Shown: positions 7,490 to 52,963 of the stretch, piece after piece
How the letters are laid out: each line of letters opens with the position of its first letter
How positions within the stretch are numbered: position 1 is the stretch's first letter
DNA from: Octopus vulgaris
Taxonomy: Eukaryota
NCBI GenBank assembly: GCA_951406725.2
Contig: OX597824.1
Coordinates: 65,348,001 to 65,412,000, forward strand
Reading direction: 5' to 3'
DNA length: 64,000 nucleotides
Notes under the pieces: model-generated
Told to the model about the DNA's origin: nothing
Seen by the model: the letters and a program-made list of their open reading frames with translations, nothing else
The model's database searches: none
Made by a program: the position numbers and the translations under genes

Positions 7490-7640
7490 GTACAGATGAA
7501 AACAGTTTGATTCAAATACCATGGTACTTAAAGTTTCAAAGCATAAGAAAATGCTTATCCTCAACCACTGGAAATTTGATACAAATTTCCAATGGTTGAG
7601 GATAAGCACAGAATTTGAATCAAGCTGTTTTAATCCATAC
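7490..7640. repeat. Foldback/MITE-like element with an internal near-perfect palindrome
   Basis: Outer IR gatgaaaacagtttgattcaaat / atttgaatcaagctgttttaatc (21/23); inner hairpin 7552-7608. Confidence 0.75.
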
Positions 7641-8007
7641 CTGTGCTAATGGAGTAAAATAATAGGTTATTTATAGAGCTTTTAGCATCTATTTCAAGCA
7701 TGTTGGTGTGTCTATGCACACCCTTCTGCTATAATTATATCTATATAATTATATATCAGTATAAATATTTTCCTAAATGGAGTTAACATGCTAGCCACTT
7801 GATGGAGTCATTAAATGGTTTTATCCTTCATTAATTAATTAATCTAATATTTACTACAGTATTTATTTTGATTGAAAAAGCATCTGGTTTGTGGTAAAGA
7901 AATTAGATTTGGAAAAGTCTATACATGTGGATATCTGTATAAATTTGTGTGGATACAAGTTTGTTCATATGGTATGTTTAGATATCTACATATATATTCT
8001 TTGGCAT

Positions 8008-8072
8008 CCTATACTGATGACAGCACAGGGAATTTACTTCCCTTAGCCTGAAATCAATCAGCAATCTATAGG
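8008..8072 (+). ncRNA. Type I hammerhead ribozyme-like motif (partly decayed)
   Basis: Stem I cctata/tatagg; core CTGATGA 8014-8020; stem II with inner agggaa/ttccct; GAAA 8050-8053; weak stem III; ATC cleavage triplet ending 8066. Confidence 0.6.
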
Positions 8073-8934
8073 CAACCTTTCTTTTGATATCTGATTGATT
8101 CACTAGCTCGCTTTCAACCTCTGCTAACCGAGTAAAATAATAGGTGGTTTATAGAGTTTTTAGCATCTATTTCAAGCATGTTGGTGTGCTACACTCACCT
8201 TGGTGCTGTAATTATATTTATATACTATTTGTATATATATATATATATATATATACATACATACAGGCTGCCCCCTCGTTATCAAGTATGGCCACTGCAC
8301 GCAGCTTAATCAATGTTGTTATTGTGCAATGCCTGTGCAAGAAGATGTTTTTTTGAAGTGAGGAAAGGCTGTGCACTGAGTCAATCCCACTCACTAAGCA
8401 ACAGCAGCCATAATCCGAAAAGAAGAACACGTCAACATCATCGGTAACCACTGAGCCGCAGGTTTTATGTCGGAGTTATCCCAGTTACCTGAGTTACCTT
8501 CTCTTATCTATCTATCTATCTATCTATCTATATATCTATCTATATATATATAATTTTCTCTCTTTATTTTCTCTTGTTTCTTATTGTGTTCCTTTCTGTG
8601 GAAGAGCATAGGCTTGAAACATTAAAGACATTTTCACTTCTTGAGCGTTAAACTAATACATCTGTTTGTTGTCTACACTACCTTCGTCTTTTGTTTTTTT
8701 TGGAATTCTCCCCCTATATGTATATTTATGTATATGTAAGGCAAATAAGACAAGGTAGAAAATGCTAAAATGATTTTATCATGAAGAACATTTTAGTACC
8801 AGTTTCAGTCTTTGCAACTTTTTTAACTTAGAGTAAAGCATGAAAAACAATAAAATTGTGGAAAAATTAAATGAAATAGTTTTCAAATGCAAGGGACATT
8901 TTCCTTTTTTCTGTTTGTCTCTCTTTTTTATTCT

Positions 8935-14498: not shown

Positions 14499-14598
14499 NN
14501 NNNNNNNNNNNNNNNNNNNNNNNNNNNNNNNNNNNNNNNNNNNNNNNNNNNNNNNNNNNNNNNNNNNNNNNNNNNNNNNNNNNNNNNNNNNNNNNNNN
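14499..14598. other. Assembly gap (100 N)
   Basis: Run of exactly 100 N next to a microsatellite; probably a placeholder of unknown size. Confidence 0.99.
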
Positions 14599-15691
14599 GT
14601 GGTTGTTTTGTGTGTGAGTAACTCCTTTTTAGTATTAGATAGTTGCTAGGAAAGAAATGTTTGAGGAGTAAGGTGGTAGCTTAGAAAAAAAGATTAGTTT
14701 TAGTGTTTGGATTTATGGAAGGGAGGGGTTAATTTTTTAATGATAAAATTATTTTGCAGAGGCAAGTATTTTGGGATGTGTGCATATAGGAGCTGCATAG
14801 GTATGTAGGGAGTTAATGGTGGTTTGGGGAGTGCAAAAATTGTTTGAGGTTTCAGAGTTTGTTTTAAGCCATGCTTCTGTTTGTTTTATTTTTATTGTTT
14901 CTTAATTTTCTTTCCTAATAGTCAGTGATTAATCACTTGCCATTCTAGTGGATGCAACAAAGCTATTTCCTTCAGAACTAATTTCAGAATCTGACATTTA
15001 GTTGATATCATAACTCATGGATGTCAACTGAATGAGATGTAGTTTATAATTGTTACTCTTTTGCTTTCAGTGTTTGATTATTGTCTTGACTTTTAACTAC
15101 TTTTTGACAATCACTGAGAATTTCTAGCTAGTGATCTAGAGAAACATCATTGCATATCGTTAGCAGTCATTTATATAAATTTTCTTTCTGTCGTATATTT
15201 TATGCCTTCCAATTATTCTTTGAGCTGTCAAAGTGAAGGTTTTGCATTTTAAACATGTACACCTACCGTTTATTTACAACAGAATGTCCTTGCTTAACTC
15301 TGATGTTGGAATAATGCATATTGAAATATTACTTAGAAAGGAAAAATAATATGTTTTTTTTGCTTCCAACTAGTTTGAAGGTTTCTCATGAGTGAATAAT
15401 AAAATATTTTGAGTCTCTTAGCTAGAGTCAGGATAATTTGCAGGATATCAAGTTATGATGGTGGCTAAAGAGATTGTGTCAATGGCAATATGCTCTTGAT
15501 ATAAAAATGAGATTTCTTAGTGGATAAAATATTGTTATACATACTTGGATGCCGGGATTTCTAATTATATATATAAATAGTTGTATACATACGTGCATAT
15601 ACATATACATATATGTATGTATACGTTTGTATATGTAAGTATTCGTATGTTGTATGTATATATATGTGCATTTATGTTACTCTCTGCGTAT

Positions 15692-15750
15692 ATTCCACTG
15701 ATGAGGCAAAGCATTTCATAATGCAAAGCCAGAAATCCGGGATCTGGAAT
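15692..15750 (+). ncRNA. Type I hammerhead ribozyme-like motif
   Basis: Stem I attcca/tggaat; CTGATGA 15698-15704; stem II ggc/gcc with inner gcatt/aatgc; one extra A; GAAA 15732-15735; near-palindromic stem III tcc-g-gga; ATC triplet ending 15744. Confidence 0.7.
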
Positions 15751-15999
15751 TATCCAGTAATTTTTTACTTGTTTTATTTTGTCTTCTTGTCTTCTCTCCT
15801 TGTGCTGTATGGGCATTTAATGTGGTTTTAGAGCCAGATCTTGGCTGCTATTTTCAGCATGGTGGTTTCTCTTAGATACCCTAAATTATAATTTTAATAA
15901 TAATTATTACCTTTGAAGGTTTTTATTTTCATGCTGGCCACTTGATAAGATCGTTATTTAATTTAAATTAGCAATCTTGTCCTTATTCATATATATATA

Positions 16000-16030
<31 letters not shown>

Positions 16031-16043
16031 ATATACACACATG

Positions 16044-17233
16044 CTGGGTGTGGACAGTATTTGTTCACATAATGATTGTCTCAGGAAAGAAATGAGACAG
16101 TGTTTTTATTTTTTTAGATATATTTATGAAATTTGGGTCAGTTTGTCTTCATGATGTGTTCTGTTGATCTCACCTAATGAACCTGCCTGTGGCTTCGATG
16201 ACAGCCTCCAGGTGGCCTCGCCACTGACCATAGGCCTTCATCACTATCTCCTGTTTTAGGCCCCTGAAGGCTCTGGTAATCCTGGCCCTTAGCTCATCCT
16301 TTATGTTGCTGTGGCTTTGTTTATCTCTTGTCCCACCACACAAAGAAGTTGAGGGGATTGCAGTTAAGCAAGTTGGTAGATCAAATGTCAGGTGATGTGT
16401 GAGCAAAGAAGTTCTCTGACAGCCAATCCTAAGTCTTCTGGCATGGCGTGGCACAGAGTGATGCTGGCACACATATGGCCTCCTTGCAGCTAATAGGTTG
16501 ATCCAGGGCTTCACCACCTCACTTGGATGTAACTGCCATTGTTCAGCTTGAGGATCTCAGGAAAGAAGTGGGGTATTATGATGTCACCTTCACTACTGAT
16601 GACACCAAAGACCATGATTGTTGCCGGAAATTTCGTCTGCATGACTCTGGGCATGTTCTTGGGTGTGACAGCAAGCCACCTGTTGTTCTGGGAGTCGATC
16701 TTCTGATCTTGGCAGAAAGACTTCTCTTCAGAGAAGAAACACAACATGTCTGGCTCCAGTGGGGGTTTCAGTTTGTTGATTAGCTTCTTGGTGTGTTTGA
16801 GTAACTTTTCTTGCATTGTTTTGGACAGAAATTGTCCCTGCTTCATCTTGTACGAAAAGTAGTGAATGTCCTCTGCACCACCAGTATGATAAGCTTTTCA
16901 TCCACACCTTTCTCTCTTACAATTGTATGCCTTGATTTGCCGGGATCATTGTTGATGGTCTGGATTTGATTGATGAATTCTGGCTTTCTGATGGTGTCAT
17001 ATTATCTATTGATCATGGGTTTCCGTCTCTGCTGTCACCTCATAGTTGAATCCTGAATCTTCCAGTTCCTTTCTGACCTTTTCCACCGTCCTTCTACTGA
17101 CTATTTTTAGTAGTCAATTATCTTGCAAAAAATAAAGCAAAAATGGTTAATGTCTTTAAGAAAAAAAAATCAAAGTAAAAAAAAAAGTGTAAAATAAGCA
17201 GTTGAAAATTGTGAACACATACTGTCCACACCC

Positions 17234-42133: not shown

Positions 42134-43352
42134 GTAAAACAAAGTTTTTTTTTGTTTTTTTTTAAATGAATTACAATTGTATACATATATATATATTTTG
42201 AAATGGGTGTGATATATATGAACAGATATGGTGCAGGTATAACTTGTGAGTGAGAAGCTTATTTCACAACCACATGGTTCTAGGTTCAATCCCACCTTTG
42301 TCAAATTAAATGTCTTCTGCCATAGCTTTTCTTTGACCAATGCTTTGTGAGTTGATTTTGATATGTAGAGTGTGTGTGTGAAAACTATTGAAGTGTAAAT
42401 GGAAAATATTTTCCTTCAATGACTCTTTTATTTTATGCCAAGGCTTTACATAGTGTGGTTCACCAACAATATTTAATATAACCGAGAAAAATCAAGGAAG
42501 AGGATCGCCTGAAAGTTTGAGTATAATAGATTAATAATTGGTATACTTTTCAACATTGATACCTCTCTTACAGACATTATTGATATACATTGTTTCGGTA
42601 AACCAACTTCTAGAAACAGTGAGCAAACCATCTCTTTCCTATTGAAGTTCAACATAGGTATACCACTACCTGGTTCCTAAATCCTGAAAGACTCTAGACT
42701 TTATTGTGTTTAAGAGAAAATGAAAAACCCTGTATACATATTGATTTTAGTAAATGAAGCTTCATTTTAGTATGTTTTTACTAAATGTTATAGTTTTTAT
42801 AAGAACATAATTTTAGTAAGGGAGTTACTAAATGGTATAATTTAAATTTTACTATGACTATATTATTGTTTCATTTGTGTATTATAAGTATATGGTCTCA
42901 TTTGTGTGTTTTGTAAGGAGGGTCAGATTTTTGGGTTCAGTCCCACTGCATGGCACCTCAGGGAGGTATCTCCTATTATAGACTCAGGCCAATTGCAGCC
43001 TTGTGAATGGATATTTGGTAGATGGAAATTGAAAGCTCATATTATATATAATATGTATTATATATGTGTGTGTGAGTGTGTGCATGTTTATGTCTCCTTG
43101 TCTTGACATTGAGTGACTGTTGTAAATGAATGGCATTCATTTCCAATATTCTACTTAAACCTTGCATGGAAATAAATGCAGGTTGGTGGCAGGAAGAGCA
43201 TCCAACTCTAAAAGTTTGTGTCAGTAAACTCCATCTGGTTCATTAAAGTATGAAAAAGTGGATTTTAAATTGGCTGCTGTGGCAGCAGTGGGGTGACAAT
43301 GATGTTTGTCTAATCATATTCAGTATCTCTTTTCATTTCATTTTCTTCACAG

Positions 43353-43478
43353 GAATGACAGTTGATTTACTCTGTGATGTTGAAGTAAATTTCTGTTACT
43401 CAACACCTTGTCAACAGAATGGAACATGCATTCCAAAAGAAGGGGGTTATGTCTGCTTATGTCCAGAAGGATATACAG
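43353..43478 (+). CDS. CELSR: CELSR/Flamingo internal exon: end of EGF1 plus EGF2 (phase 1 to 1, 126 bp)
   Basis: ttcttcacag| acceptor, acag|gtcagt donor. (G)MTVDLLCDVEVNFCYSTPCQQNGTCIPKEGGYVCLCPEGYTG has canonical EGF Cys spacing and matches CELSR CETEIDLCYSDPC...EGGYTC. Confidence 0.96.
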
Positions 43479-44894
43479 GTCAGTATATACATTCCTTTTC
43501 TTTTGTTTGCTACTTTTTCTCATGGTTGTTGCACGTATCAAGGAAGAAACATCTATGTGATTGACCAGTGTGATCAACAATTTGTTAGAAACAGTAGATA
43601 AATCTCACTCAAATCTCACCCAATTGTCTTGATTGGAAAAAAATGAGAAGACGCATTGGATATTATTGTCTAGATCAACTAAGAAAGAAAGGAAAAGATG
43701 GGTGAGTCATGGCTAAAATGACTTTGAACACAGGTCTACTTGTCAAAATTGGGCTGGTATCAAAATAACACCAACAACTACTACAGATAAAAAATTTTTG
43801 TTGATACATTCATGGATTTCATTGCTGTTCTTGTTGATCCTATCCTACCAAAATTAAAAAAAGATACCATTTATTTTCAAAGTAATCCCTTTTGTAGATC
43901 TGTTGCAGATCTCTTACCAAAAAATGCTCTCATATATTTCTACCTATTCTATTGTCACCACAACAGTCTCTGATCCCCTGAATTAGCTAGCTGCATAACA
44001 CCTGTACCCATTTCTTCTCATCTTGTCACCTCATCCATGCCCCACTATTTGCCAACACTTGCTCTCTAGAGCAACAAGCCACTGAAATTCTGCTCATATC
44101 TTAAGTTTTTTCCTGCAGATATGAACTTATAGATGATCAAACTGAGCATGAGTCATATCAATCTCACCAATCTCAGAGGGCCTTCAAAGGTCATGGACAC
44201 TGATTAAACTAGGTACAAACAGTTGAGACATAAGCCACAAAACTGCAACCAGTTACTTTAATTTCCTGAATTCATATAAATCTTGTTTTAATCATACAAA
44301 CACAGGAATTTTAATTAACACACACAGGAAATAAATATCAAAAATAGAAAAAGCAAACATGTATGGGCATGTATTATTCCTGGGTCAGTTGCATCTGGAC
44401 CAACATGATTATTGACAACTTGATATCAAAATGTTTGTCATATTTCAGCAATTTAGATTATGGATAAATTGTTCATTTTATTGGTTACGACAGTATTACA
44501 GTCGTGTAGGATATCTAAAAGACATATTCCATGCTTAGGCTTTCTTCTGTAACTGAATAGAAATTCCTTTCTCAGAAGTAAATAAATGAACTATACCTGT
44601 TTTAAAATTTTAATATATAAATGTGAATGTTTGTATGTTCCAAGTATTAACCCACACTTTTTGACATATAAACCCAGTTTTTTTTTTAAACAGGTATCTA
44701 CTTATATATAACTTTTTCCGTCTTATAATGGTAAAATACCCACTCTTTCTGTTGTTTTCATGGCTATACTGCATTCGAAATTTACTTTCTTATCTGTTAA
44801 ATACAAAACATATTCAATGCTTCTAAAGTTAGTTTACAAAATGTTGTCGTATTCCAAAAGCTATTATTATTTAGCATTTAATTTGATTGTGATT

Positions 44895-45686: not shown

Positions 45687-45731
45687 AGTGTGTGTGTAAT
45701 AAAGCATTATTACCATTATTAAAAATAACAC

Positions 45732-47550
45732 ACTGATGACCTTGCTCTAATTGCTGAGTCTCTATCAGAACTAGAGAAGTTTCAGGTATGGAAACAAGGT
45801 TTAGAATCGAAGGGCCTTAGAATCAACTTAGCCAAAACCAAAGTCCTAATAAGTAGGAAGGTAGACCAATCACAAACGCCTTCAGGTAGATGGCCCTGCT
45901 CGATCTGTAGAAAAGTTGTAGGTAGAAACTCTATAAGATGCACCAAGTGTAAGCTATGGACACATAAGAGGTGCAGCAATGTCAAAGGAAGGCTAACTAG
46001 GAAGATGGTTTTTGTATGTGGCAGATGCTCAGGAACAATTAACACTGAAAATGCTCTGAGACCAACTTCCGTCACTTTCCAGGGAGAAAAGCTAGAAGTA
46101 GTTGATAGTTTCCGTTACCTAGGTGACCAAGTCAGTAGCGGGAGCGGGTGCGCTGAAAGTATAACTGCTAGAGTAAGAATAGCCTGGGCAAAGTTTAGAT
46201 AGCTCTTACCCCTGCTGGTGACAAAAGGCCTCTTGCTCAAAGTAAAAGGCAGACTGTAAAGATGCATTTACGTACAGCCATGCTACATGGTAGTGAAACT
46301 TGGGCTGTGACTGCTGAGGATTTGCGTAAGCTCATTGCAAGAAATGAAGCTAGTATGCTCCGATGGATGTGTAACGTCAGTGTTCATAATCGACAGAGTG
46401 TAAGTACCTTGAGAGAAAAGTTGAACCTAAGAAGCATCAGTTGTTGTGTGCAAGAGAGACGTATGCGCTGGTATGGTCATGTGATGAGAATGGCTGAAGA
46501 TAGTTGTGTGCGAAAATGCCACACCCTGGCAGTTGAGGGGACCAAAGGAAGAGGTAGACCCAGGAAAATCTGGGTCGAGGCGGTGAAGCAACAACCTTAA
46601 ACTTTAGGTCTCACCAAGGAAATGACCAGTGACCGAGACCTTAATAGGTATGCAAGTGCGTGAGAAAACCCGGCAAGACCAGTGAGAACAGTCAAAATCA
46701 AGATCAAACCAAATTGAGGTCGATCAACATCAGGGCCCCCGTGCAGGTGACACGTAAAAATACCATCCGTTCGTAGCCGTTAATAACAGCCCTGTCTGGC
46801 CCCAAATAAGTTGGTGGCACGTAAAAGCACCATCCGCTCGTGTTCGTTGCCAGCCTGGCCTGGCCCCCATGCCGGTGACACGTAAAAGCACCATCCGTTT
46901 GTGGCCGTTTGCCAAAGCCTGAAATTATGAGGAGGAGGCCAGTAGATTACATTAGCCGGAATGTACAACTGGTACTTATCTGTCTGGCCCCCGTGCCGGT
47001 GACACATAAAAGCACCATCCGTTCGTGGCCGTTTGCCAGCCCTGTCTGGCCCCCATGTCGGTGACATGTAAAAGCACCATCTGTTCGTGTCCGTTTGCCA
47101 GCCCTGTCTGGCCCCCATGTCGGTGACATGTAAAAGCACCATCCGTTCGTGTCCGTTGCCAGCCTCGCCTGGCCCCCGTGCCGGTGACACGTAAAAGCAC
47201 CATCCGTTCGTGGCCGTTTGCCAGCCCTGTCTGGCCCCCGTGTTGGTGGCACGTAAAAGCACCATCCGTTCATGTCCGTTGCCAGCCTCGCCTGGCCCCG
47301 TGCCGGTGACACGTAAAAGCACCATCCGTTCGTGGCCGTTTGCCAGCTCTGTCTGGCACCTGTGCAGGTGGCACGTAAAAAGCACCCACTACACTCACGG
47401 AGTGGTTGGCGTTAGGAAGGGCATCCAGCCGTAGAAACACTGCCAGATCTGACTGGGCCTGATGAAGCCTTCCAGCTTCACAGACCCCAGTTGAACCGTC
47501 CAACCCATGCTAGCATGGAGAACGGACGCTAAATGATGATGATGATGATG
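45732..47550 (+). mobile_element. RTE LINE, 5'-truncated at the RT (Y)ADD motif, with a tandem-repeat 3' UTR and (GAT)n tail
   Basis: Frame from 45732 reads TDDLALIAES...GLRINLAKTKVL...VVDSFRYLGD...RVRIAWAKFR*, then MLHGSETWA...RMRWYGHVMRM...GRGRPRK. Contains stops and a frameshift. Confidence 0.92.
46734..47386 (+). repeat. Minisatellite of ~10 units of 61-62 bp in the RTE 3' UTR
   Basis: Unit ggcccccgtgccggtgacacgtaaaagcaccatccgttcgtggccgtttgccagccctgtct, with two end variants (...gccctgtct and ...gcctcgcct). Interrupted by a 67-bp foreign insert at 46913-46979. Confidence 0.95.
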
Positions 47551-52890: not shown

Positions 52891-52963
52891 TGCTTCATGG
52901 TGCAATGGATAACGCGTCTGACTACGGATCAGAAGATTCCAGGTTCGAATCCTGGTGAGCTCG
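52891..52963 (+). tRNA. tRNA-Arg(ACG), possibly a pseudogene (imperfect acceptor stem)
   Basis: 73 nt, nearly identical to the metazoan Arg-ACG body (tggtgcaatggataacgcgtctgactACGgatcagaagattccaggttcgaatcctgg). Anticodon at 52924-52926; A and B boxes intact; T-run just downstream. 5' acceptor strand tgcttca pairs imperfectly with 3' tgagctc. Confidence 0.85.

Follow-up and report, generated by a model that had tools for sequence, protein, structure and literature searches.

A decayed hammerhead repeat in Octopus vulgaris from a new ORF-less family of the non-LTR retrozyme or non-autonomous Penelope-like kind

The window, a 64,000-nt stretch of the Octopus vulgaris genome, contains at 7639–~8250 (+) an insertion that we consider likely to be a decayed, probably inactive, ORF-less hammerhead repeat (non-LTR retrozyme or non-autonomous Penelope-like), probably copied into a (TA)n run by a Neptune-type RT-endonuclease. 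The locus belongs to a new family of this kind, the kind itself being already described (PMC7229834; bioRxiv 10.64898/2026.07.22.740005). A sequence-only reading of the window had suggested an old, possibly undescribed family of small hammerhead elements of the retrozyme or Penelope pseudo-LTR type; its age and type are supported, and "undescribed" holds for the family, of which we found no account in the literature, but not for the kind of element.

Layout of the insertion and state of the window copy

The insertion (7639–8250, +), a member of subfamily A1, comprises 1.27 units and contains a single hammerhead and no ORF. Its 5' end is truncated at ~+51 (unit coordinates, with the predicted cut as origin), and its 3' end lies at site 1, one of two fixed end sites of the family. 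The upstream redundant part (7639–7768, +), carrying block 1, the hairpin and site 1, is repeated directly as the downstream redundant part (8117–8248, +), which holds block 1 from 8144, a partly decayed conserved hairpin (~8175–8210) and the terminal site 1, with 81% identity and a period of 478 bp. The sequence-only reading had the period right and the repeat too short (~110 bp, actually ~130 bp), and the ~478-bp unit that it proposed occurs here without forming an array. Between the two parts lie conserved block 2 with an AT-rich tract (7787–7846, +), near whose 3' end maps site 2, the 3' end of many other copies, and the hammerhead motif (8008–8072, +). The window unit is 46 nt shorter than that of locus L003. 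The 3' end merges with a (TA)n run (8213–8263), the putative target.

The motif displays a type I hammerhead core, CUGANGA ... GAAA ... UH arranged around stems I–III and open at stem I. Stem I (8008–8013/8067–8072) forms six Watson-Crick pairs, the core consists of CUGAUGA (8014–8020) and GAAA (8050–8053), and an interrupted stem II (8021–8049) and a damaged stem III (8053–8065) precede a predicted cut after C8066 (8066/8067). A descriptor scan for an intact core with six Watson-Crick stem I pairs located exactly two sites in the window, 8008–8072 and 15692–15750, as against a mean of 0.0 and a maximum of 0 in 100 block-wise dinucleotide-word shuffles, bearing out the hammerhead first proposed at 8008–8072. 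The second site belongs to a separate insertion of the related subfamily B (15600–16006, +), with a predicted cut at 15744/15745 and a 3' end at site 2 followed by (TA)n. Block 1 begins 72 nt past each motif, at 8144 and 15822, as had been noticed from the letters alone. The stems of the two motifs had been said to differ completely yet still to pair; they do pair, but a GCC before the core and the AUC at the start of stem III are common to both.

Comparison with the A1 consensus (n = 8, window copy included) revealed divergences of 9.4% over 224 sites and 5.6% over 108 sites. Three changes break three of the five stem III pairs, weakening the predicted stem III self-duplex to −2.3 kcal/mol compared with −11.8 for the consensus, and the free fold predicted for the window copy is no longer a hammerhead. 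The base before GAAA is a T (8049), as a rule an A in every subfamily. The mismatches first noted in stems II and III thus separate into two classes: stem III and T8049 reflect decay of this copy, and the mismatch at the base of stem II is family consensus. With a single motif, the copy falls short of the two-unit rule by which Li et al. class a retrozyme as "active", and it cannot release a monomer by itself. The window copy is probably a dead insertion, as the first reading had surmised, and would have decayed neutrally after insertion; in itself it is an unremarkable fossil.

Abutting the 5' end of the insertion is an unrelated, high-copy MITE-like repeat (7490–7640) with 28-bp terminal inverted repeats (24/28 matching) and an internal palindrome of 57 bp; this palindrome (7552–7608) was considered as part of the element and ruled out, belonging to the MITE-like repeat. 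Other repeats flank both retrozyme copies, from 8262 onward and at 16160–16900, which we take from their appearance to be DNA-transposon remnants; a Pfam search of the frames in 16173–16897 returned no match. Elsewhere, the window holds an EGF-like domain in an open frame (43247–43561, +; Pfam E 4e-9), probably a host exon, a PHD-finger match (45729–46199), a tRNA-like match above the Rfam threshold (52895–52958), probably a SINE head, a 62-bp tandem array within a SINE-like repeat (46734–47454) and an assembly gap of 100 N (~14499–14598).

Five subfamilies and a covarying hammerhead fold

DNA and pattern searches of the genome assembly (2.8 Gb) assembled a superfamily of dispersed units of ~480–556 bp, composed of five subfamilies: A1 (the window copy), A2, A3, B (the 15692 motif) and C, the last first met nested behind a Penelope element. 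The A search gave 57 matches from 40 scored of 187 candidates, the B search 332 and 454 exact 24- and 23-mers against 0 in reversed controls, and the C search 45 exact 18-mers; first-look candidate totals (187, 282, 3403 and 1711) are not copy numbers, and the C query contained a TA run. Over the hammerhead and ~150 nt downstream, consensus likeness is 92% for A1–A2, 81–82% for A1/A2–A3 and 64–68% for A–B, and the C consensus gave no global alignment to those of the other subfamilies. Median decay from consensus is 12.5% in A1 (n = 8), 10.2% in A2 (n = 10), 13.9% in A3 (n = 42), 10.7% in B (30 pattern-sampled copies) and 4.0% in C (30 best-scoring copies).

The structural features tested at family level for a non-LTR retrozyme were found: no ORF in any subfamily unit examined, a small unit (periods in real copies of 478–524 in A1, 484–498 in A3, 480–501 in B and 555–558 in C), a low GC content of 0.30–0.33, one type I hammerhead per unit and tandem copies. 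Copies longer than one unit (A, B and C) run upstream into the unit's own 3' part. The downstream block accompanies the hammerhead in every subfamily, so the association seen twice in the window extends to other copies. Tandem arrays with one hammerhead per period, which the sequence-only reading had anticipated, exist but are rare: a C locus (L206) forms a 2.5-unit array with three motifs at a period of ~555, and L118/L129 has two direct motifs ~497 apart. Direct arrays at unit spacing numbered 0 among the first 100 B matches listed, versus six inverted pairs, and two among the 45 C matches. The C loci L179–L208 and L218–L247 are young, with U3·G8 in place of U3-A8 in about half of the copies, and one motif (L105:1446–1546) joins a B-type stem II to an A-type 6-nt stem III palindrome, representing an intermediate or a recombinant.

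The covariation proposed for the stems is borne out. Stem I is a perfect 6-bp helix in each subfamily consensus, with a different sequence each time; all six pairs change on both sides between subfamilies, and 94.6% of cells are paired across 33 copies. The whole structure is 95.2% paired, compared with 24–40% in slid controls and 0/500 shuffles. These counts cover stem I, stem III and C3-G8 in 33 hand-picked A2, A3, B and C copies; five A1 rows and two others were dropped and stem II was left out because the alignment misplaced A1 and stem II was out of register between subfamilies, and distal stem II was judged by comparing consensus motifs. The covarying changes represent ~4 independent lineages rather than 31 sequences. 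The C3-G8 pair becomes U3-A8 in part of subfamily C, and U3·G8 occurs in 16/30 C copies. Stem III is short and self-complementary throughout, a 6-nt palindrome in A2/A3 and 8–9-nt near-palindromes in B and C, with a 7-nt duplication of the A2/A3 palindrome in A1 that permits a 5-bp hairpin.

Stem II, composed of a 2–3-bp helix, an internal loop and a 5–6-bp helix, joins the core through an odd junction. The base before GAAA is an A in 103 of 105 intact-core copies (A 26/28, B 47/47, C 30/30), facing another A in C, older B and some A3 copies, nothing in most B copies, and a C, together with a second A·C mismatch, in A1–A3. A paired 10.1-11.1 adjoining the core, used elsewhere as a hammerhead filter (PMC3088659), is absent from the family. 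CpG decay was ruled out as the origin of the mismatch, the same letters being the consensus of A1, A2 and A3 and nearby CpGs mostly persisting. Rfam returned no hammerhead match in the window at E ≤ 1 and, at E ≤ 10, none in six loci carrying better copies; the conserved odd junction accounts for the failure of Rfam and standard descriptors to pick up these motifs, and retrozyme-like elements with such junctions may be undercounted. HHR_Amex2, an axolotl retrozyme, cleaves with a U·U mismatch at the stem II base (PMC7229834), a precedent that limits the novelty of the junction. Literature on hammerheads, retrozymes, mollusc/cephalopod and Penelope elements and G10.1/C11.1 mismatches yielded no description of this family or its junction. 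Luense et al. 2017, outside that scope, reportedly deals with small variants of the hammerhead found in Penelope elements, perhaps including such junctions.

A1/A2 and A3 have the C·A/A·C junction in common, yet four compensated stem I pair changes separate them, and the outer three pairs of A3 recur in B and C. The fold was therefore probably still selected after the junction arose, although recombination between subfamilies could mimic this pattern. These changes bear on a reading in which the A-lineage hammerhead is a catalytically dead relic: the element would move on uncut tandem transcripts, the fold being kept as a protein-binding or structural signal only. We regard this as possible, if somewhat unlikely; it involves the same mobilization route as our preferred explanation and differs from it on catalysis alone. 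Stem II base mismatches in all three A consensus motifs, the spread of U3·G8 within C and the lack of 5' ends at the cut site speak for it, and lower cleavage would be expected from the core oddities that these successful masters carry, C·A/A·C in A and U3·G8 in C. Hammerhead mutants were without effect on insertion by Penelope protein in vitro (PMC11167929), and 8/9 Xenopus retrozyme dimers remained uncleaved (bioRxiv 10.64898/2026.07.22.740005). Against it, the core letters and the C3-G8 to U3-A8 covariation are kept across subfamilies only 64–68% alike, stem III stays self-complementary through three different sequences, the four compensated changes occurred around one odd junction, and the axolotl mismatch, at the same place, permits cleavage. 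Contigs of two presumed RNA runs, searched for subfamily A only, included none over the hammerhead and one short contig over 7520–7699, which is not evidence either way.

Insertion anatomy and Neptune-type elements

The 3' ends of copies cluster at two AT-rich fixed sites ~100–110 nt apart, running into (TA)n. Measured from the predicted cut, these sites lie at ~+150/+260 in B, +196/+295 in C and ~+175/+280 in A. Arms ending at site 1 or site 2 amount to 54/75 in B and 33/40 in C among pattern-sampled loci, and to 38/45 in A among loci chosen by likeness to the window. Inverted pairs in the pattern-sampled B and C loci are joined 5'-to-5' without exception (23/23), and each of the 14 classifiable pairs combines site 1 on one arm with site 2 on the other. 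In A, six of seven classifiable pairs are likewise mixed, the exception (L015) carrying site 1 twice. A hairpin precedes site 1 in all five consensus sequences, at the same place with a different sequence, a comparison made without a control.

The 5' ends of copies are scattered. The predicted cut is crossed by 28/30 C and 18/30 B copies, none of which starts exactly there, and no pile-up of 5' ends at the cut site was seen among 30 B, 30 C and 9 A loci, some from the same arrays; cutting thus left no genomic fossil. The flanks are TA runs, and target-site duplications were not discernible in those inspected. Altogether, the insertions display the elements of a Penelope-type footprint: a partial tandem, an inverted 5'-truncated arm, two 3' ends and a microsatellite target.

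This anatomy leaves little room for a classical satellite or SINE in which a hammerhead-like motif arose by chance and which unequal crossing-over or LINE machinery dispersed, an origin that we hold to be very improbable. SINE- and LINE-like repeats are common in the window and would favor such an origin, but the motif is absent from all 100 shuffles, the stems are compensated, the copies are dispersed with two fixed ends and 5'-to-5' arms, the unit is circularly permuted, and the flanks inspected showed no fixed poly(A)-like tails accompanied by target-site duplications.

Inverted 5'-truncated copies and tails are typical of Penelope-like elements (PMC8557442). A purified Penelope protein nicks both strands of AT-rich DNA and extends each of them, beginning at two internal positions of the RNA that lie in a stem-loop, which accounts for the tail; the Penelope hammerhead works with the help of the protein, and insertion in vitro does not require this hammerhead (PMC11167929). 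Judged from the anatomy of the copies, the octopus insertions appear to match this published biochemistry, except for a wider end spacing.

Neptune-type elements, which share the (TA)n target, abound in this genome: when 150 of 6136 candidates were scored, 148 GIY-YIG matches resulted, many of them within 781-aa frames. The RT + GIY-YIG elements carry a CX4CX2C linker, described for the Neptune type (PMC8557442). In the dominant Neptune family, copies terminate at (TA)n and their two alternative ends lie 36 nt apart, the tail being present in 5/12. The 3' end of this element (781-aa frame; L067 and 20 related loci) bears a minimal hammerhead with a U3-A8 core and a weak, AU-only stem I, and its optional 36-nt tail holds a small hairpin. 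Block 1 was considered as a motif common with the Neptune 3' end and rejected, 642 of 1000 shuffles scoring as high. At L177 (G000:C1:179396500-179406400), a B copy and a 5'-truncated Neptune are joined 5'-to-5' over a short TA-rich spacer, the Neptune belonging to another family (45% to the dominant one); shared targeting alone could explain this junction. A C-like two-armed fragment lies on the 5' side of a truncated Neptune at L068. The GIY-YIG match at L078 is unlike Penelope endonucleases and is presumably a host SLX1-type exon.

An autonomous Penelope element (RT + GIY-YIG) with the same terminus, for which the sequence-only reading had suggested a search, did not emerge: among 30 GIY-YIG loci (plus L177 for C), none shared A, B or C unit sequence, the matches consisting of TA runs or nested retrozyme copies only, and no RT + GIY-YIG ORF between pseudo-LTRs was found for copies of this repeat. 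Alternatively, what we treat as an independent ORF-less unit could be the terminal pseudo-LTR, truncated on its 5' side, of some autonomous Penelope element that the searches missed. A long interrupted stem II and a short palindromic stem III mark the hammerhead as one of Penelope type (PMC4209133), most copies are shorter than one unit, and the GIY-YIG candidates examined (150 of 6136) are a small share, all of which would suit such an origin. We nevertheless judge it quite improbable. Copies that exceed one unit continue upstream with the 3' part of the same unit (A, B and C; 2.5 units in L206), Penelope protein fragments occur in 10/245 overlapping locus records, and among the inspected loci L165/L276, L158/L267, L179, L190/L241, L207 and L028, no ORF continues into the unit as its own terminus.

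Several observations weigh against our preferred explanation, a non-autonomous repeat likely mobilized by a Neptune-type enzyme: the lack of an autonomous partner with the unit's sequence among the 30 GIY-YIG loci compared (150/6136 candidates scored), the end spacing of ~100–110 nt versus the 36-nt tail of the dominant Neptune family (30–40 bp in the Penelope literature), the failed comparison of block 1 with the Neptune 3' end, the rarity of arrays, unlike coral and axolotl retrozymes, the A pair with site 1 on both arms (L015), the core oddities, the small number of independent covarying lineages (~4) and the missing pile-up of 5' ends at the cut.

Proposed mobilization and relation to known retrozymes

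For an ORF-less repeat of this anatomy, mobilization may begin with transcription of rare tandem source loci. The short palindromic stem III would allow two hammerheads to pair and cut as a dimer, possibly with protein assistance, and the released RNA could circularize. A Penelope protein, probably of Neptune type, would nick both strands of a TA run, and reverse transcription would be primed from both strands at two internal positions of the RNA, of which the first lies immediately 3' of the conserved hairpin. Since the template runs through the cut site, it would be a religated circle or an uncut multimer, and copying past one unit would account for the terminal redundancy of the window copy. 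Circular folding of the units gave z values of −3.0 to −5.9 relative to 25 shuffles of each, a weak signal inflated by AT tracts.

The octopus repeat resembles metazoan non-LTR retrozymes (Cervera and de la Pena 2020, PMC7229834) in several respects: a unit of a few hundred bp that lacks an ORF and is poor in GC, a single type I hammerhead in each unit, copies in tandem, a stem III that is short or palindromic, and the presence of Penelope elements alongside; its stem II base mismatch has a precedent in the U·U of axolotl HHR_Amex2. It differs from the elements described there in its unit of 480–556 bp (reported range 150–450), in copies that are mostly dispersed insertions of less than a unit to 1.3 units with inverted arms rather than arrays, and in a motif whose stem II is long and interrupted and whose GAAA is preceded by an unpaired A. 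Li, Clavereau and Pollet 2026 (bioRxiv 10.64898/2026.07.22.740005) treat retrozymes as non-autonomous Penelope derivatives, reporting dispersed monomers with rare multimers and Neptune co-occurrence, as here, and unit lengths of 51–972 bp, a range that covers the octopus units. Their sample, as described, is without a mollusc, and their link between retrozymes and pseudo-LTRs is drawn by sequence, whereas the octopus link rests on insertion anatomy.

Penelope pseudo-LTR hammerheads (PMC4209133) share with the octopus motifs a long stem II, a palindromic stem III for dimers, the U3-A8 core variant (subfamily C) and an additional base preceding stem II on its 5' side (A, C and older B); in the octopus, in contrast, the extra A follows stem II on its 3' side, and G10.1-C11.1 is set off from the core rather than adjoining it. 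The likeness to Penelope insertion anatomy (PMC8557442, PMC11167929) comprises AT/(TA)n targets, an inverted 5'-truncated arm and two reverse-transcription starts near a stem-loop. Unlike the Penelope-like elements of these reports (PMC4209133, PMC8557442, PMC11167929), the octopus repeat is without an RT-EN frame, and its ends are ~100–110 nt apart, not 30–40.

A further proposal, which we consider unlikely though worth stating, is that the superfamily carries a working hammerhead variant in which stem II is joined to the core by one or two non-canonical pairs (A·A, then C·A/A·C). This variant would cut as a dimer or with Penelope protein, and a Penelope dimer would copy the circular RNA from both nicked strands, starting at two fixed sites whose positions, ~105 nt apart, are dictated by the conserved hairpin. 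If this were true, the five subfamilies would constitute a natural series on the core changes tolerated by retrozymes and on what defines Penelope priming sites. So far, arguments about the mobilization of animal retrozymes have drawn on co-occurrence and similarity of sequence; in the octopus, the anatomy of the insertions fits Penelope biochemistry, and its footprint (two fixed ends, 5'-to-5' arms with one end each, and TA targets) holds across subfamilies of ~4% to 14% decay.
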